Virus record (IMG/VR): IMGVR_UViG_3300048026_001019
Location: 1 to 52,640 of that record
DNA from: a virus
Taxonomy: Duplodnaviria > Caudoviricetes
Length of the DNA: 52,640 bases
Reading direction: 5' to 3' (one strand)
Position 1 is the first letter of the stretch. Each line of letters begins with the position of its first letter. Positions 2,878-45,798 of the stretch are shown piece by piece. The position numbers and the translations under genes are program-made. The notes beneath the pieces were generated by a model. The model was not told the DNA's origin. It searched no databases and worked only from the letters and a program-made list of their open reading frames with translations.

Positions 2878-4827
2878 CTATTTTTTAAGTTTGTTAAACA
2901 AAGTGTCACCGTCTTGTTCACTGTTTTGTGTATAGCCTTGTTCAGATACTGCTTGGTACTTATCAATAAACTCTTTTTCTTCCCAAGGTAGTGAATCTAT
3001 TACACCTTTTGTGTACAAGTTCTTGTAGTGTTTAAGAGTTAACGAAGGATTTTCAGCTTTCCAATGTGTCCTTGCGGCAACATGATCGGCATCATTTTCT
3101 TTTTCTTCAAGATCCTTTAAACGTTCCGATGATTCTACTTTTTTTTTAGTTTCTGGTTTCTCTCTTTCTTGCCATTCTTCATCAATCTGCATATTGATAG
3201 CTGGCTGAATTTCTTTTGGAACTAATTCTTCTGCTTTTAATTCTTCAGTAAGATCAAATTTTGGTGGAACTAATTCTTCTGCTTCCATTTGTTCTTTTAC
3301 TTGGTCTTCATCTACTTTTATTGAAGGAGTAGTCTTAGCTATTTCGTAAACTACATCGTCTCCCAAAAGCGTGGTTCCAGGCTGTCCCCCAGCATCGATC
3401 TCAGCTCGTCTACTGTCAGAGCCGGTGTCTTCTTCGACATCTGTTTGTTCTTGTTTTTGATTATCTGTTTCTGCGGCGGCTGGCTGTGTAGATTCATCAT
3501 CGACACTATCAGGTGCTTCATTGTCATTGACATCTTTTTCTCCCTCTGGTCCAGGATTATTAACTATAGCTTGTGCCCTTTTATGTTCATAGTCATCCCA
3601 GTCGAAAACGTCTTTCTTTTTTTCTTTTTGTTTTCTTAGATTTTCAAAAGTATATTGACTTGCAATTAAAAGTAAAACTGCTAACGGATCAAATACGAAT
3701 ATTATTAGTAGAATTACCCAACGTACTGCTTCTTCAAGTAAGTTTTGATCTGCTTCTTCTCCGTATACAAATTCAGCGATATATTTAATAGGACCTACTT
3801 CAGCTTCTAGCTTTCTATACTCTGCTTCAAGTGCATACTTCTCTTCTGTTAATTCATCTAACTCTGTATTTGCATTTCTTATTCTTGCAGTCTGCTCATC
3901 AACGATTGCATCAATATCTTCAGCATTAGATTCCACCCTACCAATTTGTTCACGTAATCTTGATATTAGTTCATTACTGTTTGCTATTTCTGTTTCTGCT
4001 AATCCACGCTGTCTTATAATTTCTGCTCTAGCGGCAGTGACAACAGGTGATTCTAAAGACTGTAGTTCATCCATTTTATTGAGTAAGTCAATACGTTCTT
4101 GATTCTTTTGATCTCTAAACTCTTGTACCTTTGCCGCAGTTCTTCTACCATAGCTACCGTCAGCACTTGCTCCAATAAGACCCTGTGCTTTCTTAATACT
4201 ATCTCTATCTCCTGCGTTTACATAAGATTCTAGTTGTGCTAAAGATGCGGCTATTGCATCTACTTGATTTTGATAAGGTTCTAATCTCTTTTGTATTTTA
4301 GTTTCTTCAAGAGAAATAACTTCTAGTTGCTCATTAATAGCAGGCTGTATTCTTGAGTATGCACTATCTATTCTTGCTTGCTCTCTGTCAATTTGTTCTT
4401 GAATAGTATTGTCTTGGGTGTTTGTACTAGACTCTGCTTTTGTTATCTGTGCTTCTGCTCTAACAATAATTGCTTCTTGTCTAGCAATTTCAGTGGTAAT
4501 GCGTTCAACTTGTGCAATACTTTCTTCACCTGCACTTGTTTGTTCTATGTGTGCTTTGGATAAGAATCCAAAGATACCCATGCTTGTAATAAACATTAAC
4601 AGTATAACAGCAAAAGACAAGTAAGACTTTAGCCACCATACTGTTTCTTTCCAGTACCTATGTAACCATACCGCGGTCACTAGCTTACCTACTTCAAGTA
4701 CTCCGCCCATAATCATAATTGGCAATGCTGCCGCGGCAAAGATTGCAACCAATCCTACTACACTATAATAGATAGCTACAGTAGAGATGGTCAGAGCCGT
4801 AAGTAAAACAAGTAACCCTAATAACAT
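2878..4827 (-). CDS. Membrane-anchored coiled-coil protein with embedded peptidoglycan-binding motif and acidic tail
   Basis: N-terminal TM helices, heptad-rich region, IKKAQGLIGASADGSYGRRTAAKVQEF (PG_binding_1-like), later TM segment IIFVFDPLAVLLLIA. Confidence 0.75.
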   Translation of the reverse strand: MLLGLLVLLTALTISTVAIYYSVVGLVAIFAAAALPIMIMGGVLEVGKLVTAVWLHRYWKETVWWLKSYLSFAVILLMFITSMGIFGFLSKAHIEQTSAGEESIAQVERITTEIARQEAIIVRAEAQITKAESSTNTQDNTIQEQIDREQARIDSAYSRIQPAINEQLEVISLEETKIQKRLEPYQNQVDAIAASLAQLESYVNAGDRDSIKKAQGLIGASADGSYGRRTAAKVQEFRDQKNQERIDLLNKMDELQSLESPVVTAARAEIIRQRGLAETEIANSNELISRLREQIGRVESNAEDIDAIVDEQTARIRNANTELDELTEEKYALEAEYRKLEAEVGPIKYIAEFVYGEEADQNLLEEAVRWVILLIIFVFDPLAVLLLIASQYTFENLRKQKEKKKDVFDWDDYEHKRAQAIVNNPGPEGEKDVNDNEAPDSVDDESTQPAAAETDNQKQEQTDVEEDTGSDSRRAEIDAGGQPGTTLLGDDVVYEIAKTTPSIKVDEDQVKEQMEAEELVPPKFDLTEELKAEELVPKEIQPAINMQIDEEWQEREKPETKKKVESSERLKDLEEKENDADHVAARTHWKAENPSLTLKHYKNLYTKGVIDSLPWEEKEFIDKYQAVSEQGYTQNSEQDGDTLFNKLKK

Positions 4828-7335: not shown

Positions 7336-7370
7336 AAAAAAGAGTGTGGCATCTCTGCAACACACTCTTT
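7336..7370 (-). terminator. Terminator downstream of tmRNA
   Basis: AAAGAGTGTG..CACACTCTTT stem plus T run. Confidence 0.65.
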
Positions 7371-7374
7371 AGTG

Positions 7375-7685
7375 CTATTTTTGGTAACAAGGTATAACTA
7401 CCCCGTAACAGCCTAAGCCGCTAATGCCATCTCTGGCGCATAATTGTCATTTGCAATTATAAGTTTCGTTCGCGTTAACCGAGCTTACATCCGGGCAACT
7501 CCACTCTCCTATTAACTAACAGTCGATCCTATTTCGACCCCATCATAAACACACGACTTGCACCCTTTCGAGGTCTTGTCCTATACACAGAAAAGCAGGT
7601 GTATCTACTCTCATGTGCTTATGGTGGAGTCGCCGGGTACCGCCCCCGGGTCCTGTCTAGCGTTTGAATTGCTTCAACGTTACAA
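7375..7685 (-). ncRNA. ssrA: Circularly permuted (two-piece) tmRNA, alphaproteobacterial type; outer ends approximate
   Basis: Acceptor piece GGACCCGGGGGCGGTACCCGGCGACTCCACCA ends at 7622; intervening segment 7621-7542; coding piece starts GGGGTCGAAATAGGATCGAC at 7541; tag frame 7454-7413 reads ANDNYAPEMALAA*. Confidence 0.93.
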
Positions 7686-7688
7686 ATA

Positions 7689-7719
7689 TATTTATAACAC
7701 AGAAATTGTTATATGTCAA
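7689..7719 (-). promoter_or_regulatory. Overlapping sigma70 and T4-like late promoter for tmRNA
   Basis: TTGACA-17 nt-TATAAA, whose -10 box extends to TATAAATA. Confidence 0.65.
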
Positions 7720-7832
7720 CCTCGATTTCAATCACAGAGGATTGCTCGCCTCTCTTATGGAATCTGCAGAGTTCTGGATCTTCTTCAATAAACCAGCCCA
7801 AAGCGATCAACGCACAGTTTATGACAATTCGT

Positions 7833-35574: not shown

Positions 35575-35627
35575 TGTGGCCGTACACTGACGAAGAATCA
35601 GATTGGCTAGATGATAAAAAGAGTTGA
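35574..35627 (+). CDS. 17-aa peptide overlapping the AOX start
   Basis: GAGG RBS, TAATG coupling; MWPYTDEESDWLDDKKS*. Confidence 0.4.
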   Translation: MWPYTDEESDWLDDKKS

Positions 35628-36204
35628 CATCGCCGATAGTATAGCGTTTAGGCTTACAATGATGTTTAGATGGTTTGCAGATACTTTTTTTGCAAAGCGT
35701 TATGGACACAGAGCAGTAGTACTTGAAACTGTTGCCGGAGTACCAGGTATGGTAGCAGGCATGTGGAATCACTTACGTAGCCTAAGAAAGATGCAACCTG
35801 ATGAGCGAGGCTGGATTAAGACTTTACTAGACGAAGCTGAAAACGAACGAATGCATTTAATGATCTTCATTGAAATTGCAAAACCAAATATCTTTGAAAG
35901 ATTATTAATTGCATTTGCTCAGCTTGTTTTTTGGCACTTCTATCTAGTTTTATACATTTTCTTTCCAGGCACTGCACACAGGATGATAGGATACTTTGAA
36001 GATCAAGCTGTTATTTCATACACACAATATCTAGATGAAATAAAAAGTAGCAAGGTTGAAAATATTCCTGCTCCGCAAATTGCAATAGATTATTACGGAT
36101 TGAAAAAAACTGCAAAGTTAAGTGATGTAATTAAAAAAGTAAGAGCTGACGAGCAAGGGCATGCAGATGTTAATCACGGAATGGCTGACCAAATAAACAA
36201 ATAA
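35611..36204 (+). CDS. aox: Alternative oxidase (ubiquinol oxidase)
   Basis: LETVAGVPGMV, EAENERMHL, FEDQA..SY, RADEQGH di-iron motifs. Confidence 0.95.
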   Translation: MIKRVDIADSIAFRLTMMFRWFADTFFAKRYGHRAVVLETVAGVPGMVAGMWNHLRSLRKMQPDERGWIKTLLDEAENERMHLMIFIEIAKPNIFERLLIAFAQLVFWHFYLVLYIFFPGTAHRMIGYFEDQAVISYTQYLDEIKSSKVENIPAPQIAIDYYGLKKTAKLSDVIKKVRADEQGHADVNHGMADQINK

Positions 36205-36250
36205 AAAAGAGTGACAGAACTCTCCGCCAAGAAGGCTCTGCCACTCAAAA
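36203..36250 (-). terminator. Terminator hairpin between convergent genes
   Basis: A run, GAGTGACAGA...TCTGCCACTC. Confidence 0.55.
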
Positions 36251-36264
36251 AGTGTTATAAAATT

Positions 36265-36501
36265 TTACGCTTTGCGATTGTAGATATGATATAACACCCA
36301 GACAGCAACTAAGCCAACAAGACCTTGTGCAGACAATCCTGAGATCATTGCAGTGATATTGCTAACAACGTTGATGTTTGGCCAGAACGGAATGTTTTGG
36401 CCGTTGAAGAGAACTTCCAGTACAACTGCTAAAGAAATAAGTGAAATACCTACTTCTGTGATAGCACCTGCCCATCCTCTTATTTTATTTAAGATTTCCA
36501 T
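36265..36501 (-). CDS. Small membrane protein
   Basis: AGGAGG RBS; two hydrophobic helices. Confidence 0.7.
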   Translation of the reverse strand: MEILNKIRGWAGAITEVGISLISLAVVLEVLFNGQNIPFWPNINVVSNITAMISGLSAQGLVGLVAVWVLYHIYNRKA

Positions 36502-36641
36502 AATGGATACCTCCTTTGTTAACTGACATAAGCTTTCGTCAGTAGTGTATTTAATCTGGTTGATTATCATCATTCAGTACTACTTTAATGTTACACACCT
36601 AGACTTAAATACCCAGTCGACAATATATAGAAAGGAATTTC

Positions 36642-37259
36642 ATGTTTAGTAATATATTCAAAGACGTTAATATGACGTTGGTACGTAACCTAGTCATATT
36701 ACACACCGCGGTAATTGCACTCAGCAACTACCTTGTTACAATTAGATTTAATGTATTTCCAGGAGCAGACCTACCATTGTTTGGAGAGTTTCCGTTAGCA
36801 GCAGCGGCGTTTACTTTTCCTATTGTTGTAGTAGCTACTGACCTTACAGTTAGACTAGTTGGCAAAGAAGCAGGACGAGCTGTTGTTGCAATGGCAATTA
36901 TTCCTGCGATTGTTGCTTCTGTGCTTGTATTATTAGCACTAGGTGATGAACATGCATATCGTGTAGGTTTAGCTAGTGGTACTGCTTATGCAATTGGTAC
37001 TATGCTTGACGTATACGTATTCCAACACATTCGTGAAAGAATGTCAGCTTGGTGGATAGCCCCTGCAGTTTCGACTGTTGCCGCTAACATCATTGATACT
37101 TACGCATTCTTTTACACAGCGTTTTATCCTGCACCATGGGTTGCAGACGTAGCGTTTAATAATACACTAACAAAAATTGTAGTAGGATTAATTGTATTCC
37201 TACCTGCATATGGTTTATTACTTAATGCACTACAAAAACGAACAACTAAAGAAGAGTAG
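36642..37259 (+). CDS. VUT family (YhhQ-like) queuosine-precursor transporter
   Basis: SNYLV, FTFPIVVVATDLTVR, LDVYVF, ST..ANIIDT..F. Confidence 0.85.
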   Translation: MFSNIFKDVNMTLVRNLVILHTAVIALSNYLVTIRFNVFPGADLPLFGEFPLAAAAFTFPIVVVATDLTVRLVGKEAGRAVVAMAIIPAIVASVLVLLALGDEHAYRVGLASGTAYAIGTMLDVYVFQHIRERMSAWWIAPAVSTVAANIIDTYAFFYTAFYPAPWVADVAFNNTLTKIVVGLIVFLPAYGLLLNALQKRTTKEE

Positions 37260-37271
37260 CGTAAAACGATT

Positions 37272-37303
37272 AACCCCCGACATAGTTTCCTGTGCCGGGG
37301 GTT
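37272..37303. terminator. Hairpin between convergent genes
   Basis: AACCCCC...GGGGGTT stem. Confidence 0.55.
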
Positions 37304-37363
37304 GCTAACTATCTATATGTTGTAAGGACTATGTCCCTTTATATTATATTCTCTTTATATTAG

Positions 37364-37678
37364 TTACTTTTTATCGTTAACGAAATCATAGAACTTATTA
37401 GCAGTTTCTAAAATAGAGTCAACACCTGGAATAGGTGGCATCTCTACAGTTGTTACTATTTCGTTAGTCTCCGAATCTACGTGTGAAGTCTGTTGCCAGC
37501 CTGCAAACTTTGCATTATACTCAAAGTGTTCTTGATCTTTTGCAATTTGTAAGATCTTAGATCGGATTTCATATCCATTTTTGTTTGTGTTGATTTTTGG
37601 CATCATGTCTTTTACCATTTCTGCCATTGCTTGGGTCTGCTTTAAAATGTCAGCACCGTACTTAGTGTCTACAGTCAT
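37364..37678 (-). CDS. Hypothetical phage protein
   Basis: AGGAG RBS; NKNGYEIR..IL..AKD...A.KFYDFV. Confidence 0.7.
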   Translation of the reverse strand: MTVDTKYGADILKQTQAMAEMVKDMMPKINTNKNGYEIRSKILQIAKDQEHFEYNAKFAGWQQTSHVDSETNEIVTTVEMPPIPGVDSILETANKFYDFVNDKK

Positions 37679-37736
37679 TATATTCTCCTATGTGTCTGTG
37701 TGTACGCTATTAATATAGCATAGTATTTAGCACATG

Positions 37737-37925
37737 TCAAGTGTATTTTCCTGAAAGACGGTCCTCTATATATCCTGCAACTGTTACTAATTTCTGTATT
37801 TCTGCAACATCTGGATGTTCTTCTTTAGCCAAATCTTCAATTAGTTCTGCTATTCCTTTTCTTTCTGATTCTAATAATTCTTCAACTGTCCATATTTGTG
37901 GATCATCAAATTCTACCTTAGCCAC
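37737..37925 (-). CDS. Hypothetical protein
   Basis: GTG start behind GAGG. Confidence 0.6.
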   Translation of the reverse strand: MAKVEFDDPQIWTVEELLESERKGIAELIEDLAKEEHPDVAEIQKLVTVAGYIEDRLSGKYT

Positions 37926-38353
37926 GCAATCCTCTCCTTTGATTCTACTCTGCGATTGTACTCGTTAACCGACCCCGGATACCTCCAAGACCATATTGCT
38001 ACGCCTAACATAAAAATGCCTGAGTAAAGAACTGCCTTGATATTGCCTGTAGTAAACCATGTAAATGCTAATGTACTTGACATTACAATTATCATAGCAT
38101 ATTTTGCCCATGTTGGAAAAACTTTCTTTGTGGTCCAATTTGTTAGGAACTCTCCAAACCATGGATGGTTGTATAACCATGCATGCATCCGTGGAGAACT
38201 CTTAGCAAATGCCCAAGCAGCCATTACTAGAAAAATACTAAATGGTATTCCTGGAGTAACGAAACCGATGTAGGCCATTCCTACACAAAAGAATCCAAAC
38301 CCTTGATAAAGATATTTTTTAATTAAGTCCATGTTGTTCCTTTCTGCGATCAC
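37913..38353 (-). CDS. YbaN/DUF454 inner-membrane protein
   Basis: G..TPGIP...F...AAWAFAKSSPRMHAWL.NHPWFG. Confidence 0.85.
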   Translation of the reverse strand: MIAERNNMDLIKKYLYQGFGFFCVGMAYIGFVTPGIPFSIFLVMAAWAFAKSSPRMHAWLYNHPWFGEFLTNWTTKKVFPTWAKYAMIIVMSSTLAFTWFTTGNIKAVLYSGIFMLGVAIWSWRYPGSVNEYNRRVESKERIAWLR

Positions 38354-39543
38354 TTTATAACCTTAACCAATGCGTCTACTAAATCGCTCATCATAGCGTC
38401 AGTGTGCAAAGGAGTTGGTGCGATCCTTAACCTTTCTGTTCCTTCTGGAACAGTTGGGTAGTTAATGGGTTGTATATAAATCCCATATTCATTAAGCAAC
38501 TCGTCACTAATTTCTTTGCAACGCTTTGCATCTCTTATCATTACAGGAACTATGTGTGTGCTTGCAACATCTAGCACTTCTATGTCAACTTCTGCTAACA
38601 TAGACTTTAACTTAGATGCACGTTCTTGATGTTGAACACGCAACTCATTATGATCCTTTAAATATTTAATTGAAGCTAAGGCACCAGCACAAATCACAGG
38701 ACTCATGCTGGTAGTGAATATAAATCCACTAGCTACTGATCTGATTGCGTCTATGACAATCCCTTCACCAGCTATGTAACCGCCTTGTACTCCAAACGCT
38801 TTGCCTAAAGTTCCGTTGACTATATCAACTACACCTTCTTGTCCGACTTCTTCTAGCTTACCGGCCCCTGATTCCCCGTACAAGCCTACAGCATGTACTT
38901 CGTCTAGATATGTTATGGCCCTATACTTTTCGGCTAGCTCGCAAACACCTTTAATTGGACTTACGTCACCATCCATGCTATACACAGATTCAAATACAAT
39001 ACATGGTATCATATCGTTAGCTACGCAATCTTGCAATTTTTCTTCTAAGTCGCTCAGATCATTGTGCTTCCATCTTGCCTTAGGAGCACCACTATGTCTT
39101 ATACCTTCTATCAGGCTGGCATGGTTCATGTCGTCACTTAAAAACATAATGTTGGGAATGATTTTGCTTAGAGCAACCAGTGTCCACTCATTGGCAACAT
39201 ATGCACTTGTATACAATAAAGCACTTGAAGTACCATGCAATTTTGCAAGCTCATGCTCTAGTGCTACATGGTAGTGCGAAGTACCGCCAATGTTTCGCGT
39301 ACCACCTGATCCACTTCCTGTTTGATCTAAGGCAGTATGCATTGCATCAATGACGACTTTATTCTGACCCATACCGAGGTAATCATTACTACACCAGTTT
39401 ACAATATTTTTTATTGCATAAGGCCCGTACCAAATTGATTTAGGAAAGTCACCGCGTTCACGAAGTATATCGTTAAACACTCTGTACCTACCTTGCTGTT
39501 TTAGGTCCCGTAGAACCTGTTCAAATGGATCCTTGTCTATCAT
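38350..39543 (-). CDS. hemA: 5-aminolevulinate synthase
   Basis: WCSNDYLGM, GSGGTRNIGGT, NHAS, FESVYSMDG, DEVHAVGLYG, GTLGKAFG, FIFTTS, INYPTV..ERLR. Confidence 0.95.
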   Translation of the reverse strand: MIDKDPFEQVLRDLKQQGRYRVFNDILRERGDFPKSIWYGPYAIKNIVNWCSNDYLGMGQNKVVIDAMHTALDQTGSGSGGTRNIGGTSHYHVALEHELAKLHGTSSALLYTSAYVANEWTLVALSKIIPNIMFLSDDMNHASLIEGIRHSGAPKARWKHNDLSDLEEKLQDCVANDMIPCIVFESVYSMDGDVSPIKGVCELAEKYRAITYLDEVHAVGLYGESGAGKLEEVGQEGVVDIVNGTLGKAFGVQGGYIAGEGIVIDAIRSVASGFIFTTSMSPVICAGALASIKYLKDHNELRVQHQERASKLKSMLAEVDIEVLDVASTHIVPVMIRDAKRCKEISDELLNEYGIYIQPINYPTVPEGTERLRIAPTPLHTDAMMSDLVDALVKVIK

Positions 39544-39582
39544 CAGTGTATTTAAGGTAAATATTAATGTAGGAGTATTATT

Positions 39583-40050
39583 GTGGCAACAGAATGTTTA
39601 GTAGTATGTGATGCATGGAAGGAACCTTTACCTCATGATGCTCAAGACTTCCCTCATCTTGCAGATGAAACAAAAGCGTTTGGCGTTTATCTAAATCAAA
39701 CACTTAAATTAATAAGATCCCGTTTTGATATTATTCATGTTGCAGATGGACGTGAAATAATGGAGGAGATGGATACAACACAAGATAAAATATTCCCTTT
39801 CATACAAGATATACCAACCCACTATGACAAATATTACTTGTGTGGATTTCATTTAGGAAGATGTACCCACGGAAAAGCAATGACTCTTGCAAAATTAGTA
39901 ACACATAATCAGATTGGTATTGTGTTTAATTTAAGTTTATTATTTCCTTGTGATGACTACAACAAAATGCGTGAACGTGACTGGTTTACTTTATACAATT
40001 ACGTACATGGTCTACAAGATTTTACAACAGATTGTGCTCCTAAAAAATGA
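39583..40050 (+). CDS. Hypothetical protein, weakly isochorismatase-like
   Basis: LVVCDAW and CGFHLGRC. Confidence 0.55.
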   Translation: MATECLVVCDAWKEPLPHDAQDFPHLADETKAFGVYLNQTLKLIRSRFDIIHVADGREIMEEMDTTQDKIFPFIQDIPTHYDKYYLCGFHLGRCTHGKAMTLAKLVTHNQIGIVFNLSLLFPCDDYNKMRERDWFTLYNYVHGLQDFTTDCAPKK

Positions 40051-40229
40051 TAGAACAATGGACACCTATTTCACTTTTAATTTTTGTATCAGTTCTTGTA
40101 ATCCTTGTCTATGGAGTAGGATTGTGGGCAGGCACTGTACTTAAAGATCAAATTGAAAAAGATAAAATAAAAGACGCACAGCGAGCCGCTGAGGAAAAGA
40201 AAAACGCTAAGCCTGTACGAAGAAGATAA
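40047..40229 (+). CDS. Small single-TM protein
   Basis: Hydrophobic N-terminal half, basic tail. Confidence 0.6.
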   Translation: MIEQWTPISLLIFVSVLVILVYGVGLWAGTVLKDQIEKDKIKDAQRAAEEKKNAKPVRRR

Positions 40230-40306
40230 ATAAACAGATGAAGAAATAGGCTCAATTTTTTTTGAGCAAATTTTTTTTAGGTTGAATTTACTAAAAGGAA
40301 AAGAAA

Positions 40307-41137
40307 ATGACGCAACTAATATCGCCGAAGAAGTTTACAAACACCGTTGACCTTTTAAGGTCATTTTTTTTGGACAAAGGATTTTTAGAAGTCCATACGC
40401 AGAATAGGCTTAGTATACTAGCCGCATGCGAAGATCCATTTAATGTAGCAACATATAATTACGCAGGCCAAGTTTGGCCATTGCCGCAAACAGGCCAGAT
40501 GTGGCTAGAACATGAATTATTAAGTAGCCCCGATAGTAAGGGGTTTTTTTGTGTCTCCACTTCCTATAGACAAGAACCAAACGCTATTCCGGGTAGACAC
40601 GATATAATATTTCCAATGTTTGAATTTGAAATGCCAGGTAGTGTTGATGATCTTAAAGCAATGGAGTATGAACTATGTGAGTACTTGGGCTTTGATGCAC
40701 TAACAGAAAAAACATATAGAGAATGGCAACAGCATTGGGGTATAAGTGCAGACACTGAAATGGATGCAAGTCACGAACTAGCAATGGAGATGAACTTTGG
40801 TAGTTGTTTGATTACAAACTTTCCAGAGCTAACATCACCTTTCTGGAACATGGCTAGAAACGATGATGGCAATACAGCAAAGAAAATGGATGTTATACTA
40901 GGCGGTATGGAAACTATTGGATCAGCAGAACGCTCATGCGATGTTGATATGATGCGTGATACATTCCATAGTATTGTAGATGGAGAGTATAGCGAATTAC
41001 TATACAAACTATTTGGCAAAGAACGTGTAGAAGCAGAGCTTGAAAAGTTTTTAGAGTTTGACTTTTTTCAAAGAGTAGGCGGAGGTATTGGTATTACACG
41101 TATGATACCTGCACTAGAAAAGATCAACAAGATATAA
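40307..41137 (+). CDS. Class IIb aaRS-like catalytic core (AsnRS/AspRS-related) lacking the anticodon-binding domain
   Basis: Motif 1 FFLDKGFLEVHT, LPQTGQ, motif 2 SYRQE..RH..FPMFEFE, ETIGSAER, motif 3 GGGIGITR; 276 aa, beginning just before motif 1. Confidence 0.88.
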   Translation: MTQLISPKKFTNTVDLLRSFFLDKGFLEVHTQNRLSILAACEDPFNVATYNYAGQVWPLPQTGQMWLEHELLSSPDSKGFFCVSTSYRQEPNAIPGRHDIIFPMFEFEMPGSVDDLKAMEYELCEYLGFDALTEKTYREWQQHWGISADTEMDASHELAMEMNFGSCLITNFPELTSPFWNMARNDDGNTAKKMDVILGGMETIGSAERSCDVDMMRDTFHSIVDGEYSELLYKLFGKERVEAELEKFLEFDFFQRVGGGIGITRMIPALEKINKI

Positions 41138-41143
41138 GAATGA

Positions 41144-41243
41144 TCTGGGGTGGTGAAATGGTAGACACGCACGGCTGTTAACCGTGTGGTAAGTAACTCG
41201 CAAAGTATTTACCGTGGAGGTTCGAGTCCTTCCCCCAGAGCCA
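41144..41243 (+). tRNA. Atypical 100-nt tRNA-Asn(GTT) with long variable arm
   Basis: Acceptor TCTGGGG/CCCCAGA, G73, CCA; D arm GTG-AAATGGTAGA-CAC; anticodon arm CACGG-CTGTTAA-CCGTG; V arm GGTAAGTA..TATTTACC; T arm GGAGG-TTCGAGT-CCTTC. Confidence 0.9.
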
Positions 41244-41256
41244 ACTAAATACTATA

Positions 41257-41300
41257 CGTTCATCCCATAAAGGGACGGAAGTAGCACTAGCGAAGGAACG
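41257..41300 (+). promoter_or_regulatory. Glutamine riboswitch aptamer (glnA / glutamine-I type)
   Basis: CGTTC-ATCCC-ATAAA-GGGAC-GGAAGTA-GC-ACTA-GC-GAAG-GAACG: P1, P2, E-loop AGUA/GAA and a short P3. Confidence 0.8.
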
Positions 41301-41326
41301 CACTTTAACCGCAAGGGAGAGGTGTT

Positions 41327-41413
41327 ATGAATACTTACATGCTCTGGTGCTTTAAACGTGCCATCCGCAAAATGCATGAGAACAGAATAAACTTTATATT
41401 ATCTAAACGTTAA
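41327..41413 (+). CDS. 28-aa basic peptide downstream of the glutamine riboswitch
   Basis: GGAGAGG RBS; MNTYMLWCFKRAIRKMHENRINFILSKR*. Confidence 0.6.
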   Translation: MNTYMLWCFKRAIRKMHENRINFILSKR

Positions 41414-41751
41414 CTAAAATCCATGCGCCATGGTAACATGGTATAGCCTAGTGGTGCTAGGAAGTATTGTTCGAAGCAGTACAAAAGAACTACTGCAAAT
41501 ATAGTCCTAGCCCACCAAGGCAATTTTTTTAATTGATTTATTAAGGGTGTTAGTACCCATTCCCAAAAGCCTGCTACTTTACCCCAGAACCAATCACCTA
41601 TATTAAATGGCGGCGTCTTCCATAGTACTACAGGAATTAGCAACCACCATACCCATACTGGATAGCTATCATCTGCTGCATCAAAATAGATTGCTAAAGC
41701 AATCATTCCTAATAGGTATAATCCTATGTATTTCTTTAGGTGTTCTATCAT
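41410..41751 (-). CDS. Trp-rich membrane protein
   Basis: Several hydrophobic segments. Confidence 0.65.
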   Translation of the reverse strand: MIEHLKKYIGLYLLGMIALAIYFDAADDSYPVWVWWLLIPVVLWKTPPFNIGDWFWGKVAGFWEWVLTPLINQLKKLPWWARTIFAVVLLYCFEQYFLAPLGYTMLPWRMDFS

Positions 41752-42020
41752 ATAGTAATTCCTCTATCTCCTTCACCTTTTATTTCTTTAAGTTCTTCAA
41801 ACAACTTTTGAGGAATACAGTTAACACCTCTAATAGGTCCTGGTAGTGTTCCTTTGTACGCTTCTACAAGTTTCATTGTATAACTCTCTACACTTTTTTT
41901 ATCTGTTAGTGTAAACCTACACTGTGCTTCTGTTTCAAATGTTGGTTTAGTAAACACATACATTGGCTGAGATCCGTCTGCGTTCAAAGCAGCAAAAAAT
42001 ATTATCACATACCACATCAC
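41748..42020 (-). CDS. Small protein with hydrophobic N-terminus and two Cys
   Basis: FETEAQC...NCIP. Confidence 0.65.
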   Translation of the reverse strand: MMWYVIIFFAALNADGSQPMYVFTKPTFETEAQCRFTLTDKKSVESYTMKLVEAYKGTLPGPIRGVNCIPQKLFEELKEIKGEGDRGITI

Positions 42021-42355
42021 TCATAACTTTCGCCAGTTTCACGAAAGAAGTTTTCACTCCAAAACGCTTTGTCATCTATCCAAATATCGTAGTTCTCTTT
42101 TTCACCTACGCTTAGTTCATGGAACTTTGCACCCCATTTTACTAATTGGTTATTTGTTAGATTGTAATAGTCTACTCCACTAACACAACCTCTAGCTGTC
42201 ATATATTTAATTGTGTGTCCTGCGTCAAATAGTGCATTTACTTTTGCAATACGATCTGGCATTGGTATATGATTAGCATAGTCTTTTTTGCCACCGCTGT
42301 CAGGTATAATTACTTCTTTACAGATGGTGCCATCAATATCAATTACGTACTTCAA
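42017..42355 (-). CDS. Small HAD-superfamily phosphatase
   Basis: IDIDGTIC, YMTARG, WIDDKA. Confidence 0.85.
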   Translation of the reverse strand: MKYVIDIDGTICKEVIIPDSGGKKDYANHIPMPDRIAKVNALFDAGHTIKYMTARGCVSGVDYYNLTNNQLVKWGAKFHELSVGEKENYDIWIDDKAFWSENFFRETGESYE

Positions 42356-43536
42356 TTCAATAATCCTTCCAAAGTTTGTAGTACTTGCTCACTGTTATCA
42401 GCTCTTCCTGTAACAATAGCATCTTTAACACATTGTCTAGTAAACTCTAACGGAAACCTTGCTCCGTCTTTGTCCATACCTGTGTTAACTAGATAGACAT
42501 TAGCTTTATGTGTGTCTATTTTATCCATTAATAAATCGCTATATTCAGAAACTGCCCTAGGCATAAAGGGCGAACCATAGCAAGGACTAAACAAAGGTTT
42601 GATTTCGTTTGTTCCTGCTTCTGTTCCTGGCATTTGACTAGTGTATCCTGTTTCAAAAAACCTACGCACTGTGTTGCCGCTTATTTTACTAATAGGTGGA
42701 AACATGCCTTTGGCATCCATTGTTAAAAAGAAAATGTTAGTAGGGTGATCAAAATCTGTTGTGTCATATGCATTTTCAACAAGGTTTAAAGGATAACTTA
42801 GCCTAGCATTAGCGGCGCCTGGGTTTTCTTCAACCAAACAATTGTTTGACCTTGCTAGCTCTACTGCATTAAAAATAGTTGGATGTGTTTCAGGTGTTAG
42901 CCCTTCGCTCTTAGCATAACACCCTGTTTCTATCATATTAACGCCTTCGTAGTTCCATGCTATTTCGTCATCACCAATTAGTTTGTAATCAGGATCGCTA
43001 GACAATGTAGTTTTACCAGTGCCACTAAGACCAAACATAAGATTAGTACTGTCCTTGTAAGTAAATGCACTACAATGCATAGGAAGTACTTTATGTTCTG
43101 GTAATTCAAAACTTACAATACCAAACACGCCTTTCTTAATTTCTCCTAAGAACGTAGTGCCTGCAATTAGCATTACATGTTCGTCTAGATGTACGTGTAT
43201 TTTAGGCTTTGACATTTCAATGTCTGTGTTATGTAGTATTGTCCAGTCAGCTGTATATTGTAATGGGTTATCAACCACAGGAAACATATTGCGTACAAAT
43301 TGTGCATGCCTGTCGTCATTTGTTTCTACTCTAAAACAAAGGCCGCAAGTATAAAACACAAGATTATGATTGTATTCTAATTCATACATATCGTTATGGA
43401 AGTCTTTAAAGTCTTGCTCATTACCAATCTTATTATACTTAGGCCTAGTAAGATCTAATGCTTCAGTACGATGTCCAAAAAAGTATTTGTTCTCCGGACT
43501 TCTACCTGTCGGGTGTGTCGTTATATTAATATTCAT
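42352..43536 (-). CDS. pckA: ATP-dependent phosphoenolpyruvate carboxykinase, compact form
   Basis: TGRSP, GEIKKG, LPMHCSA, FGLSGTGKTTLS, IGDDE, GCYAK, FSPCYGSPF, YLVNTG. Confidence 0.92.
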   Translation of the reverse strand: MNINITTHPTGRSPENKYFFGHRTEALDLTRPKYNKIGNEQDFKDFHNDMYELEYNHNLVFYTCGLCFRVETNDDRHAQFVRNMFPVVDNPLQYTADWTILHNTDIEMSKPKIHVHLDEHVMLIAGTTFLGEIKKGVFGIVSFELPEHKVLPMHCSAFTYKDSTNLMFGLSGTGKTTLSSDPDYKLIGDDEIAWNYEGVNMIETGCYAKSEGLTPETHPTIFNAVELARSNNCLVEENPGAANARLSYPLNLVENAYDTTDFDHPTNIFFLTMDAKGMFPPISKISGNTVRRFFETGYTSQMPGTEAGTNEIKPLFSPCYGSPFMPRAVSEYSDLLMDKIDTHKANVYLVNTGMDKDGARFPLEFTRQCVKDAIVTGRADNSEQVLQTLEGLLN

Positions 43537-44497
43537 TTATTAATCCTATATGAGAAGCTGTATCGGCCATTCTATTACTGAATGCCCATTCGTTGTCGTA
43601 CCAGCATAATACTCTAACTAACTTCCCACAAACAAGTGTACTGTCGGCTGCAAAGATACAACTTTCGTTTGTAGTATTAAAGTCCATGCTTACTAATGGT
43701 CTAGTTTCAAAACCAATAATTCCTTTCATTTCATTTTCGCTTGCTGTTTTTACAATATCATTTACTGTATCAACATCAACATCTGCTTCGCTATAAAAGT
43801 GTAAGTCAATACAACTTACATTCGGTGTAGGTACTCTTATAGCACTTCCAATAATTTTCCCTTCCATTTCAGGTAGTACCGACTTAAGAGCCTTAGCGGC
43901 TCCTGTTGTAGTTGGTATCATACTCATTGCGGCCGCCCTAGCACGATATAAATCATCATGCCTCCTATCGATTGTAGCTTGGTCGCCTGTGTAGCTATGA
44001 ATTGTAGTCATTGAACCACGTATGATTCCTAAACTATCATTTAAAACTTTTACAATTGGGGCAAGGCAGTTTGTTGTGCAACTTGCACTACTAATGATAC
44101 TATCTTTTACTGATATATCATTATGATTAACACCATAAACAACTGTACGGTCTACATTCTTTCCCGGCGAACTTATGAGAACAGTCTTTGCACCGTTTTG
44201 AAGATGTACACTAGATTGATTCCCATCTCTAAACTGCCCTGTGCATTCTAACAAAACATCAACACCTTTCCAATTTAATAGATTAATATCCCTTGTGTGT
44301 GAGTATGTTGTAGTGTCTTTTAGTTTGCCCTTCCATCTGCCATGCACACTATCAAAATTTAACAAATGATTGTTTACATGTTCATCGCCTGTGGCGTTTA
44401 TTCTAACTAGTTCAAGGTCGTCTCTTTCGTCTGTGATGATTCGGGCTAGGCAACGACCTATCCTTCCAAAACCATTTATTCCAACTTTTGTTGTCAC
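43526..44497 (-). CDS. gap: Glyceraldehyde-3-phosphate dehydrogenase, type I
   Basis: GINGFGRIGR, ASCTTNCLAP, TTIHSYT, TTGAAKA, RVPT, WYDNE. Confidence 0.93.
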   Translation of the reverse strand: MTTKVGINGFGRIGRCLARIITDERDDLELVRINATGDEHVNNHLLNFDSVHGRWKGKLKDTTTYSHTRDINLLNWKGVDVLLECTGQFRDGNQSSVHLQNGAKTVLISSPGKNVDRTVVYGVNHNDISVKDSIISSASCTTNCLAPIVKVLNDSLGIIRGSMTTIHSYTGDQATIDRRHDDLYRARAAAMSMIPTTTGAAKALKSVLPEMEGKIIGSAIRVPTPNVSCIDLHFYSEADVDVDTVNDIVKTASENEMKGIIGFETRPLVSMDFNTTNESCIFAADSTLVCGKLVRVLCWYDNEWAFSNRMADTASHIGLINEY

Positions 44498-45292
44498 TTA
44501 TGTACTCGCTTCTGTTATATCCTTTATGTTCATGCTCAGAGTCATATCAAATTCTACATCTGTTTGATGATGAAACAAACCTTCACTTAGGGCTCTACTA
44601 AAACTTGCAGTCATATTATCATTTTGTGCAAGTCGACGACATGCTTCCTCAGTAGAGTATCCTCCACTTAGACCAACAACTGCATGTACACTTTTATGTC
44701 CTATAAGGTCTTTATACATATTTGGTTGTTCAGGTAGCGTTAATTTAAGAATACATTTACCATCAAATTCATCTAAACGTTTCTTAAGTCCGTGTAGCAA
44801 GGCTATCTCTAGTCCTTGCTTGTGTTCATGTTCTATTGGAACTTCAGGCTCTACTATTGGCATAAGTTCCCATGCATGTATTTTTTTAGCTAGCTCAAAC
44901 TGCTGATCCAATACACTGTCTACTATTTCTTGAGTCTTAACAATACTACGCATCTTAGTACCTACACAGCCTTTGGCAACTGCATATGTAAGTATTTCAT
45001 TAGTATCAAAGTCTTTAAGTGTACCGTCATCTGCACAGCCACTGTCTATTTTTAGATAAGGGTGAATACCTTTTTGTCTAAGAATAGGAACCATACCTCT
45101 ATCAACTGTGTCACGATACAAAATAGCCGCCCATATACTATCATTATTAAAGTCTGGAGAGCTTACCATACGCAAACGCATATCATGTACTTTATCCATT
45201 TTATCTTCTTCAGTATACGCTTGTCCGTATCGTTCTAGTACTCCTCCTGTTGAACCACCACTGTGATCCATTGCGGCTATAAATCTACTCAT
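44498..45292 (-). CDS. Class I fructose-bisphosphate aldolase
   Basis: FIAAMDHSGGST, LKIDSG, GTKMRS, PIVEPEV, LKLTLP, LSGGYS, SFSRAL; ATGA-coupled start at 45292. Confidence 0.9.
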   Translation of the reverse strand: MSRFIAAMDHSGGSTGGVLERYGQAYTEEDKMDKVHDMRLRMVSSPDFNNDSIWAAILYRDTVDRGMVPILRQKGIHPYLKIDSGCADDGTLKDFDTNEILTYAVAKGCVGTKMRSIVKTQEIVDSVLDQQFELAKKIHAWELMPIVEPEVPIEHEHKQGLEIALLHGLKKRLDEFDGKCILKLTLPEQPNMYKDLIGHKSVHAVVGLSGGYSTEEACRRLAQNDNMTASFSRALSEGLFHHQTDVEFDMTLSMNIKDITEAST

Positions 45293-45798
45293 ATATAAGT
45301 TCTCCATGCTTCATGTTTAATTGGCATATCTAATTGTTTTCTTTTTGCAACTAGATCATAATAAGTTGGGGTGTATGGTTTATTTTTAGGCTTCATACGT
45401 GTTTTATTACCTTTGAGGGTATTACATGGACTACAAGCGGCAACCATATTATCCCATTTAGTTTTACCGCCTAGGCTCAACGGAATGACATGGTCCATGG
45501 TTAGTTCTTTTCTTGTGTGGGTAGTGTTGCAGTATTGGCAAGTGTATAAGTCGCGGATGTAAAGATTAGTTTTTGAGAATCTTGGACGGCCACGCCGTCG
45601 TTGCATTTCTTTCAGCATAACTACCGCAGGAACTTTTGTTTCCCAACTAGGACTGCTTACCATCCAATCATCGTACCAATCAAGTACAACTACCTTGTCC
45701 ATCCATACATAAGTAATTGCTTCTTTCCAATTGATAACTGAAAGGGGAATGTAACTAGTAGGCTGTGCGTCTGCGTTTAATAATAGTACATCACTCAT
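45289..45798 (-). CDS. HNH endonuclease
   Basis: VLLLNAD, RD.YTCQYC, TMDHVIP..GG...W.N...C..CN..K. Confidence 0.9.
   Translation of the reverse strand: MSDVLLLNADAQPTSYIPLSVINWKEAITYVWMDKVVVLDWYDDWMVSSPSWETKVPAVVMLKEMQRRRGRPRFSKTNLYIRDLYTCQYCNTTHTRKELTMDHVIPLSLGGKTKWDNMVAACSPCNTLKGNKTRMKPKNKPYTPTYYDLVAKRKQLDMPIKHEAWRTYI

Follow-up and report, generated by a model that had tools for sequence, protein, structure and literature searches.

The stretch analyzed here, referred to as the window, is the complete IMG/VR record IMGVR_UViG_3300048026_001019, 52,640 bp of tailed-phage DNA with a completeness rating of 16%. Positions 41244-41413 of its plus strand hold, in order, a T4-type late-promoter-like box (41244-41251), a glutamine-I (glnA-type) riboswitch aptamer (41255-41304), an expression platform in which a hairpin sequesters the Shine-Dalgarno (SD) sequence (41300-41325), and an open reading frame (ORF) of 28 codons plus stop that encodes a micropeptide (41327-41413, with the ATG at 41327 and the stop at 41411-41413). 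An AsnA-like gene and a tRNA-like gene, together called the Asn module, lie immediately upstream, and a convergent gene (41410-41751) follows. It is probable that 41244-41413 is a self-contained cassette worked by the ON mechanism proposed below. The autonomy of the cassette is supported by the fixed position of the box, by a tmRNA that is distant and on the opposite strand, and by the convergent orientation of the next gene.

The aptamer was examined with Infernal and Rfam. The glutamine-I model RF01739 matched at 52.7 bits (gathering score 35; E 8.1e-9 for the whole window) over its full length, positions 1-53 of 53, which shows the aptamer to be of the glnA type, as originally predicted. 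Because the curated Rfam threshold is passed, the match is beyond chance. The three-stem junction consists of P1, formed by 41257-41261 with 41296-41300, a hairpin termed P1a at 41263-41275, and P3, in which G41284-C41285 pair with G41290-C41291; all the conserved junction bases, ACGGAAGUAG and GAAGGAACG, are present. Identity as a glutamine-II riboswitch (Downstream-peptide motif) was rejected; model RF01704 scored 16.7 bits, below its gathering score of 33, and matched the first hairpin alone. The aptamer ends 22 nt before the ATG, a cis-regulatory position with a platform that uses the conserved C after P1. Judged from its sequence, the riboswitch is a genuine new member of the glutamine-I class.

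The platform hairpin, CACUUUAACC-GCAA-GGGAGAGGUG, carries the SD sequence GGGAGAGG (41315-41322) in its 3' strand, 4 nt before the ATG. When positions 41296-41332 were folded alone, the energy was -11.1 kcal/mol (z -3.27), and 2 of 200 shuffles were as good. The helix pairs C41301 with G41324, A41302 with U41323, C41303 with G41322, U41304 with G41321 and U41305 with A41320; U41306-G41319 is a possible further pair, and the GCAA loop is closed by CC/GG. G41300 is common to P1 and the hairpin, and either can use it.

Covariation was evaluated in 68 distinct leaders, belonging to the peptide families A, B and C described below and to others, that were aligned with MAFFT. Scoring covered P1, the hairpin and P3, as well as the pairing of the five to six bases that follow P1 with those immediately upstream of the start codon. 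The five P1 pairs are invariant in all 68 leaders, and a P3 pair (columns 31/40) showed 28 double changes and no mismatches. Platform pairs 1-3 form in 64 of the 68 rows, the four misses being GTG-start rows that lie one column off in the MAFFT alignment. Pair 4 (columns 54-78) is U-A in 34 rows, C-G in 30 and U-G in four, and is never unpaired, while pair 5 (columns 55-77) is U-G in 46, U-A in 14, C-G in seven and unpaired in one. Pair 6 is mostly unpaired (41/68). For the structure as a whole, 90.9% of cells pair versus 85.2% in shuffles, a value reached by none of 500 shuffles, and slid registers gave 32-53%. The GGAG of the SD sequence is kept in the alignment, and the SD helix stands directly upstream of a conserved ORF in every one of the 68 leaders. 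These data show that the helix between the tail of the aptamer and the SD sequence covaries and, together with the fold of the isolated hairpin, bear out the proposal that the hairpin sequesters the ribosome-binding site.

The ORF was compared across at least 119 IMG/VR stretches, obtained by an exact-pattern scan for the aptamer core that is a sample and not a census, together with phage Melnitz and 78 stretches of bacterial genomes. With the bacterial stretches kept apart, the set comprised 122 aptamer occurrences including those of the window and Melnitz; here and below, counts over these loci are among the matches listed. Nearly all 122 aptamers have an SD sequence and a short ORF within 17-35 nt downstream, and the ORFs were sorted into families by motif. 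Family A is defined here as peptides of 27-51 aa with an aromatic-x-x-aromatic-Cys motif near the N-terminus and then a basic helix, encoded directly behind a glutamine-I aptamer; it accounts for 53 of the 122 occurrences, the window and Melnitz included. Family B (64-65 aa) was found behind 23 aptamers, family D, which has YRG motifs and weak DUF4278 matches (E about 1e-3, below the curated cut-off), behind 16, and family C (50 aa) behind 14. Other families, including a 78-aa GTG-start family and one ending NPWY/NPFY, account for 13, and no ORF follows the remaining three, which are the first aptamers of tandem pairs.

In the window peptide a Y-x-x-W-C-F motif at the N-terminus leads into a basic helix; the peptide belongs to family A as defined and aligns without gaps to 32 other members, and its nearest database relative is P0010. 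There are 39 distinct ORF sequences in family A encoding 37 distinct peptides, in all of which the Cys is invariant, and one database relative has Arg at that position. Over 77 pairs with less than 30% nucleotide divergence, which are not independent of each other, pS was 0.338 and pN 0.108, giving a pN/pS of 0.32. The differences at the three codon positions numbered 289, 151 and 386, and the other two frames contain stops in almost all pairs. The peptide is shown in this way to be conserved, and the proposal that it is the conserved product controlled by the riboswitch is upheld by 53 family members and the low pN/pS, the test for nonconservation having failed to refute it.

The window peptide matched no Pfam family at E up to 10. 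When a 31-member family-A profile was searched against 1.84 billion representative proteins, 17 matches were obtained at E up to 1e-3, all of 29-72 aa, and no fused or longer forms were found beyond these. The ten protein clusters that were looked up are metagenomic only and are either nameless or named 'hypothetical protein'. A tblastn search of the 28-aa peptide against isolated phages gave one chance-level match (E 7), the query being too short to inform. AlphaFold2, given a 31-row alignment with a 32-aa relative as its first row, predicted one helix at residues 3-31 with a mean pLDDT of 91.9. ESM Atlas look-alikes of a 35-aa bacterial peptide (best 0.89) were unrelated eukaryotic fragments and provided no lead. 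On sequence grounds, this is a real and conserved, basic micropeptide that is predicted to form a single helix. Paper searches gave no description of the family, although such ORFs may be listed in the supplements to Klaehn 2018, Weinberg 2010 and Buchholz 2022. Two related arrangements were seen: P0006 (72 aa) consists of two family-A copies fused in one ORF, with a linker that translates an SD-like sequence, and another contig (G125:C27:7703-7906) carries two family-A copies in tandem.

The 78 bacterial stretches were obtained by searching 185,579 species genomes with a general aptamer pattern. A strict pattern of aptamer plus platform gave no matches in the same genomes, a false negative of the pattern, because in the bacterial tandems the platform-proximal aptamer departs from it at one base. 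According to their record titles, the stretches come mostly from SAR86 and other Gammaproteobacteria, SAR116, Burkholderiales/Betaproteobacteria, a 'Rickettsiales' metagenome-assembled genome (MAG) and about a dozen cyanobacteria. Seven Burkholderiales/Betaproteobacteria loci have a TTGACA-type (sigma70-like) promoter, two tandem aptamers, the platform, the peptide and a terminator. The platform CACCUAAC...GGAGGGUGUUAUG is common to phages and these seven loci, and the family-A peptides of the latter are 35-48 aa long, one copy being cut by the end of the locus. In L178 and L150, the two such loci scanned for their aptamers, both members of the tandem pass the Rfam threshold, and the two loci whose flanks were scanned (L178 and L197) lie among cellular genes for a thioesterase, PNPOx, an RraA-like protein, an MFS transporter and TonB receptors. 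In bacteria the peptide is encoded monocistronically; its phage copies stand behind a late-type box.

The distribution of the bacterial copies was determined with the family-A profile. Of 29 genomes of the Burkholderiales family, 8 encode the peptide, all 1.2-2.1 Mb in size, and a sample of 301 genomes from the Burkholderiales order gave 3. Among 401 sampled Alphaproteobacteria it was found in one, the query genome itself, and in the family of the query it was found in 3 of 66, two of these matches being weak. Glutamine synthetase (GS) and PII are present in four cassette-bearing Burkholderiales genomes; GlnE had no match in any of these four, which are incomplete genomes. The alphaproteobacterial cassette genome has GlnE.

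The box ACTAAATA is located 5 nt upstream of P1, with CTAAATA at 41245-41251, and agrees at 7 of 8 positions with TATAAATA, the T4-type late promoter consensus. In 52 of 98 unique upstream sequences [ACT]TAAATA occurs 4-9 nt before P1, and no other bin of 6 nt contains more than 7, so the CTAAATA box noticed originally is a real, positionally conserved element. Many cassettes share the order terminator-like hairpin and T-run, (G)ACTAAATA or TATAAATA, a spacer of 4-9 nt, and CGUUC. ORFs of at least 100 aa leave 17.5% of the window uncovered, and 19 of its 31 [AC]TAAATA copies are located there; 10 of the 31 lie no more than 120 nt upstream of an ORF on the same strand. The box would fit a T4-type late promoter whose transcript starts at about the first base of P1. 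Buchholz et al. took TATAAAT as the late-promoter motif (PMC9004378). Processing from an upstream tRNA was rejected as a general route; an ARAGORN scan just upstream of the cassettes found a tRNA or tmRNA in the window and in one other locus (L082) only.

The direction of the switch was considered in the light of published work. In GFP fusions the glutamine-I leader of Synechocystis gifB and a glutamine-II leader of Prochlorococcus acted as ON switches (Klaehn 2018, PMC6212724). With reference to the crystal structure of Ren et al., that paper puts forward a model in which the conserved C following P1 is paired, along with the bases next to it, to the ribosome-binding site until bound glutamine draws this C into a long-range G-C pair and the helix melts. 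Huang et al. 2019 argue likewise for glutamine-II (PMC6698751). The C and A after P1 are invariant among the leaders and are present in the window; because they begin the SD-sequestering helix, the ON logic fits the window. In the absence of glutamine, the invariant C41301 and the next four to five bases would pair with A41320-G41324 and hide the ribosome-binding site. When glutamine binds, the aptamer would fold, C41301 would join the long-range G-C pair, the helix would melt and the peptide would be translated. By homology to gifB, a glutamine-ON translational switch appears to be the likeliest mode of action of the cassette.

Several observations weigh against this account. The ON direction would follow from one source, homology to the Synechocystis gifB leader, and GS, PII and AmtB are candidates, no more, as targets of the peptide. 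The variable positions of the helix are pyrimidine-only versus purine-only, so the one mismatch that can arise is C opposite A and the covariation test is weakened; the informative part is that no C stands opposite A among the 30 C-bearing rows. Relatedness among the leader sequences also makes the pairs non-independent. ViennaRNA applied to the full leader keeps the hairpin and does so without the canonical P1, with a whole-leader z of -1.45; this fold was weighed neither way, because the published fold of the bound aptamer rests on long-range contacts. With respect to the promoter, the box occurs in only 17 of 39 family-A upstream sequences (14/18 in family B, 13/14 in C and 0/14 in D), the window taken as a whole shows no enrichment of the heptamer (31 copies vs. 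40 expected), and the 5-nt spacing between box and P1 would put a T4-like start on P1 or 1-2 nt inside it. Melnitz-type copies have no box and begin 8 nt after the Rfam end of the tmRNA, and therefore entry by read-through or processing also occurs. In favor of the account, an RNA-library contig of 203 nt (run X18) is identical to window positions 41274-41476 and covers the cassette, as do RNA-library pieces from X15, and further RNA-library contigs match the aptamer core alone and then run into Melnitz-like leaders; all such contigs are assembled, may be carried-over DNA and have ends that cannot be read.

The possibility was considered that the switch works in the opposite sense, with glutamine stabilizing P1 stacked on the SD hairpin and thereby repressing translation, or that the hairpin is constitutive and tunes the level of translation. 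P1 and the SD hairpin are adjacent and share G41300 alone, so they could coexist and stack, and the SD hairpin is stable by itself. However, both types of glutamine riboswitch tested so far act as ON switches (PMC6212724; PMC6698751), and the helix opens with the invariant C, the base with which the bound aptamer makes its long-range pair in Klaehn's account of Ren et al. Repression or constitutive tuning is unlikely on this evidence, and the ON switch is preferred.

The original prediction also joined the cassette to its upstream neighbors, treating 40307-41413 as one amide-nitrogen control unit whose peptide acts on the adjacent enzyme, GatCAB or GS. The AsnA-like gene (276 aa, with the class II aminoacyl-tRNA synthetase catalytic core PF00152) directly precedes the tRNA-like gene (41144-41243, plus strand; Rfam tRNA 52.8 bits), which has a 26-nt insert or long arm in its variable region and a 3' end 12-15 nt before the aptamer. 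The anticodon loop of the latter reads CUGUUAA (GUU, Asn) by Rfam alignment, and ARAGORN calls it Gly(acc). When all window ORFs were compared with all loci by tblastn, the AsnA-like protein was found in four places only, L029, L051, L040 and phage P-SSM2. L029 and L051 have it at 82% amino acid identity and in the same order (AsnA-like enzyme, long-armed tRNA, box, riboswitch, peptide); their tRNA loop reads CUGUUUA, and the element is below the Rfam gathering score there. In L040 the gene is non-adjacent and lies beside a family-B cassette. P-SSM2 has the AsnA-like enzyme followed by an 86-nt tRNA (annotated tRNA-Asn; L002 3296-3381), and no glutamine aptamer was found in the 5.8 kb examined.

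A single amide-nitrogen unit is quite improbable in view of these comparisons. The order of the module is kept in the two closest relatives among the matches listed, L029 and L051, and glutamine and asparagine are both amide amino acids. However, in only 3 of the 53 family-A cassettes (L029, L051 and the window) is the cassette preceded by the AsnA-like gene and odd tRNA, both are present in P-SSM2 with no riboswitch in the 5.8 kb examined, the Melnitz cassette follows a tmRNA, the bacterial copies lie among thioesterase, PNPOx and TonB-receptor genes, and the cassette has a promoter-like box of its own. Because the association is found in 3 of 53 and P-SSM2 has no riboswitch beside its module, the Asn module and the cassette are separable neighbors of one small lineage. 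Neither the joint unit nor the action on GatCAB is supported, as no GatCAB signal was seen and the Melnitz and bacterial cassettes have no Asn module. On the far side of the cassette, tRNA arrays are found on the minus strand of L029 (2350-2685, four tRNAs) and L051 (4228-4475, three tRNAs), where the window has its convergent ORF of 113 aa.

It is still less probable that the ORF is a nonfunctional leader whose translation is coupled to read-through transcription antisense to the convergent gene at 41410-41751. The ORF is very short and overlaps the end of that gene, and no strong plus-strand terminator follows it, as such a scheme would have it; yet the peptide is conserved across differing genomic contexts with synonymous variation (pN/pS 0.32), and in bacteria a clean terminator closes the unit, where no convergent gene is present.

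A different role has been published for the homologous element in other phages. Buchholz 2022 (PMC9004378) reported a glutamine riboswitch in Methylophilales phage Melnitz, Pelagibacter phage Mosig and pelagimyophage metagenome-assembled viral genomes (MAVGs), described the OM43 genomes examined there as having none, and assigned the switch to ssrA/tmRNA, with the aptamer at the 3' border of the annotated ssrA. By blastn, window positions 41253-41330 match four genomes of Melnitz, an OM43 phage, at 84% identity over 78 nt. In Melnitz-1 (L001) Rfam puts the end of the tmRNA at 2995 and the start of the aptamer at 3003, placing the aptamer outside and downstream of ssrA. The Melnitz-1 micro-ORF (3074-3172, plus strand) is unannotated, and a hypothetical coding sequence on the minus strand (3097-3198) is annotated over it. 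The window has a two-piece (permuted) alpha-type tmRNA with the tag ANDNYAPEMALAA at 7338-7723 on the minus strand. That the riboswitch controls the phage tmRNA or downstream late-transcription genes and the small ORF is incidental, a reading that is the authors' own and is suggested by the border with ssrA in Melnitz, is hardly credible, given that the Melnitz aptamer is downstream of the tmRNA, the window tmRNA is on the other strand 34 kb away, the SD helix directly precedes a conserved ORF in all 68 aligned leaders and the next gene in the window is convergent.

The cassette reading corrects the published tmRNA interpretation and shows the cassette to be independent of both the tmRNA and the Asn module. 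The Melnitz/Mosig system resembles that of the window in its homologous aptamer and platform, in the micro-ORF of the same family (Melnitz) and in its T4-like marine phage setting. It differs in that the paper assigns the switch to tmRNA, whereas the window tmRNA is remote. Where this one published account in phages of heterotrophs assigns glutamine riboswitches to tmRNA control, the window shows a simpler unit.

Because the same unit is found in marine T4-like phages, Melnitz and streamlined Burkholderiales chromosomes, the phage copy appears to be a regulator of glutamine status that phages have borrowed from, or share with, their hosts. The peptide would be made when glutamine is high and would act on a host nitrogen-assimilation protein. 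GS is the first candidate for its target, a proposal by analogy that is possible but doubtful. Equally tentative is the proposal that family A is a proteobacterial counterpart of the cyanobacterial GS inactivating factors, a basic helix of roughly 30 aa that shuts down ammonium assimilation (GS, or PII/AmtB) at high glutamine in streamlined marine bacteria, and that T4-like marine phages captured it under a late promoter. Such a captured regulator would tie late-infection nitrogen and ATP use to the glutamine pool of the host. If this is true, micropeptide control of nitrogen assimilation reaches well beyond cyanobacteria and is exploited by phages. Co-folding of two GS copies with the 35-aa peptide of the same Burkholderiales genome gave a score of 0.00 and no call, which counts neither way on binding.

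Klaehn 2018 (PMC6212724) places glutamine riboswitches in cyanobacteria and marine metagenomes alone and connects them with IF17-like GS inhibitors. Identity of the window peptide with the GS inactivating factor IF17/DUF4278 (PF14105) was rejected, as there was no Pfam match. The cassette is similar to the Synechocystis gifB leader in its aptamer class, in the invariant C after P1 that starts the helix with the ribosome-binding site, and in its translational control of a small protein. In contrast, the window product is not DUF4278/IF17, the carrier is a phage with a probably non-cyanobacterial host, and a late-promoter-like box takes the place of the NtcA-regulated promoter of gifB. IF7 and IF17 are, like the window peptide, small basic proteins, and they are made at high glutamine, IF17 under a glutamine riboswitch; no sequence relationship between them and the window peptide was detected in Pfam at E up to 10. 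The glutamine-II/Downstream-peptide element of marine picocyanobacteria (Weinberg 2010; Klaehn 2018) likewise places a very short conserved ORF immediately behind a glutamine aptamer, but differs in aptamer fold (RF01704 16.7 vs. 33) and in its peptide family, which is YRG/DUF4278. Within family A, the phage window has a single aptamer, whereas the bacterial copies have tandem aptamers. What is new is the combination of aptamer, covarying SD helix and undescribed micropeptide, common to marine T4-like phages and streamlined marine bacteria. A synthesizable peptide of 28-35 aa is a candidate effector of nitrogen status and gives a handle on how phages read the glutamine pool late in infection.

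The bacterial stretches also showed aptamers in front of other genes. In Gammaproteobacteria L134, L139, L171, L186 and L193, some titled Thiothrix, they lie upstream of glutamate-synthase-like (gltB-like) genes, where a conserved CCAAACU...AGAGUUUGG hairpin suggests a transcriptional platform, and in SAR116/Alphaproteobacteria L123, L156, L162, L194 and L199 they lie upstream of amtB-like ammonium transporters. Because aptamers precede gltB-like and amtB-like genes in marine heterotrophs, glutamine riboswitches are common in such genomes, beyond cyanobacteria. SAR86 and other Gammaproteobacteria (L124, L127, L132, L133, L138, L145, L148, L170, L185 and others) have tandem glutamine-I aptamers before small ORFs of other families, one of 46 aa ending NPFYP, one of 54-67 aa ending FFPYYL and one of 71 aa; the NPFYP/NPWY family is also found on viral contigs L006, L043, L085, L113 and L118. 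A GTG-start family of 77-78 aa (ending ...WLPP.W.H.LV...) with a very short platform occurs in the 'Rickettsiales' MAG (L135, L172, L180) and on viral contigs L021, L042, L061, L068, L078 and L079; the three identical copies on the MAG contigs may be a repeat or binned phage DNA. In cyanobacteria and other MAGs (L128, L153, L160, L161, L165, L179, L183, L184, L198) the aptamer is followed by a hydrophobic family that is not DUF4278, probably a membrane protein, with complete copies of 68-76 aa, one ORF of 35 aa and one cut by the end of the locus.

A non-cyanobacterial host, which the original prediction had thought probable, is plausible. By blastn, fragments of the tmRNA, which is of the alpha type, match Rhodobacter, Roseobacter and Mesorhizobium phages (hosts in the Alphaproteobacteria) as well as Melnitz, with no cyanophage matches. 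The peptide family was found in an OM43 phage, Burkholderiales and an alphaproteobacterial MAG and in none of the cyanobacterial loci examined. However, the window encodes nrdA and nrdB, and because the nrdA product is closest to homologues of T4-like cyanomyoviruses (71% identity), such a host is plausible rather than shown.

A megablast search with 24 kb of the window found no match among isolated phages, none of which is close to it in DNA sequence. Marine and viral metagenomes in public archives often contain the cassette-bearing stretch 40300-41800, of which 14 DNA runs (X1-X14) had at least 0.89 of the sampled words; one of these runs is possibly the source of the window itself. Cassette-bearing contigs of 53-102 kb (G000-G005, the window included) are only 16-28% complete by CheckV, and these ratings imply relatives with genomes of about 330-360 kb, far above the 141 kb of Melnitz. 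Several cassettes per genome were considered and rejected; each of five large contigs (79-102 kb) has one glutamine aptamer. The alternative oxidase (AOX) encoded in the window gave a single phage match by tblastn, at 59% identity, and because there was one phage match only, assignment to the cyanophage PTOX type was rejected. The AOX gene belongs to a region dense in metabolic genes, window positions 35611-45307, that also encodes PEPCK, GAPDH, an aldolase-like protein, an ALAS-like aminotransferase and a Vut_1 transporter.

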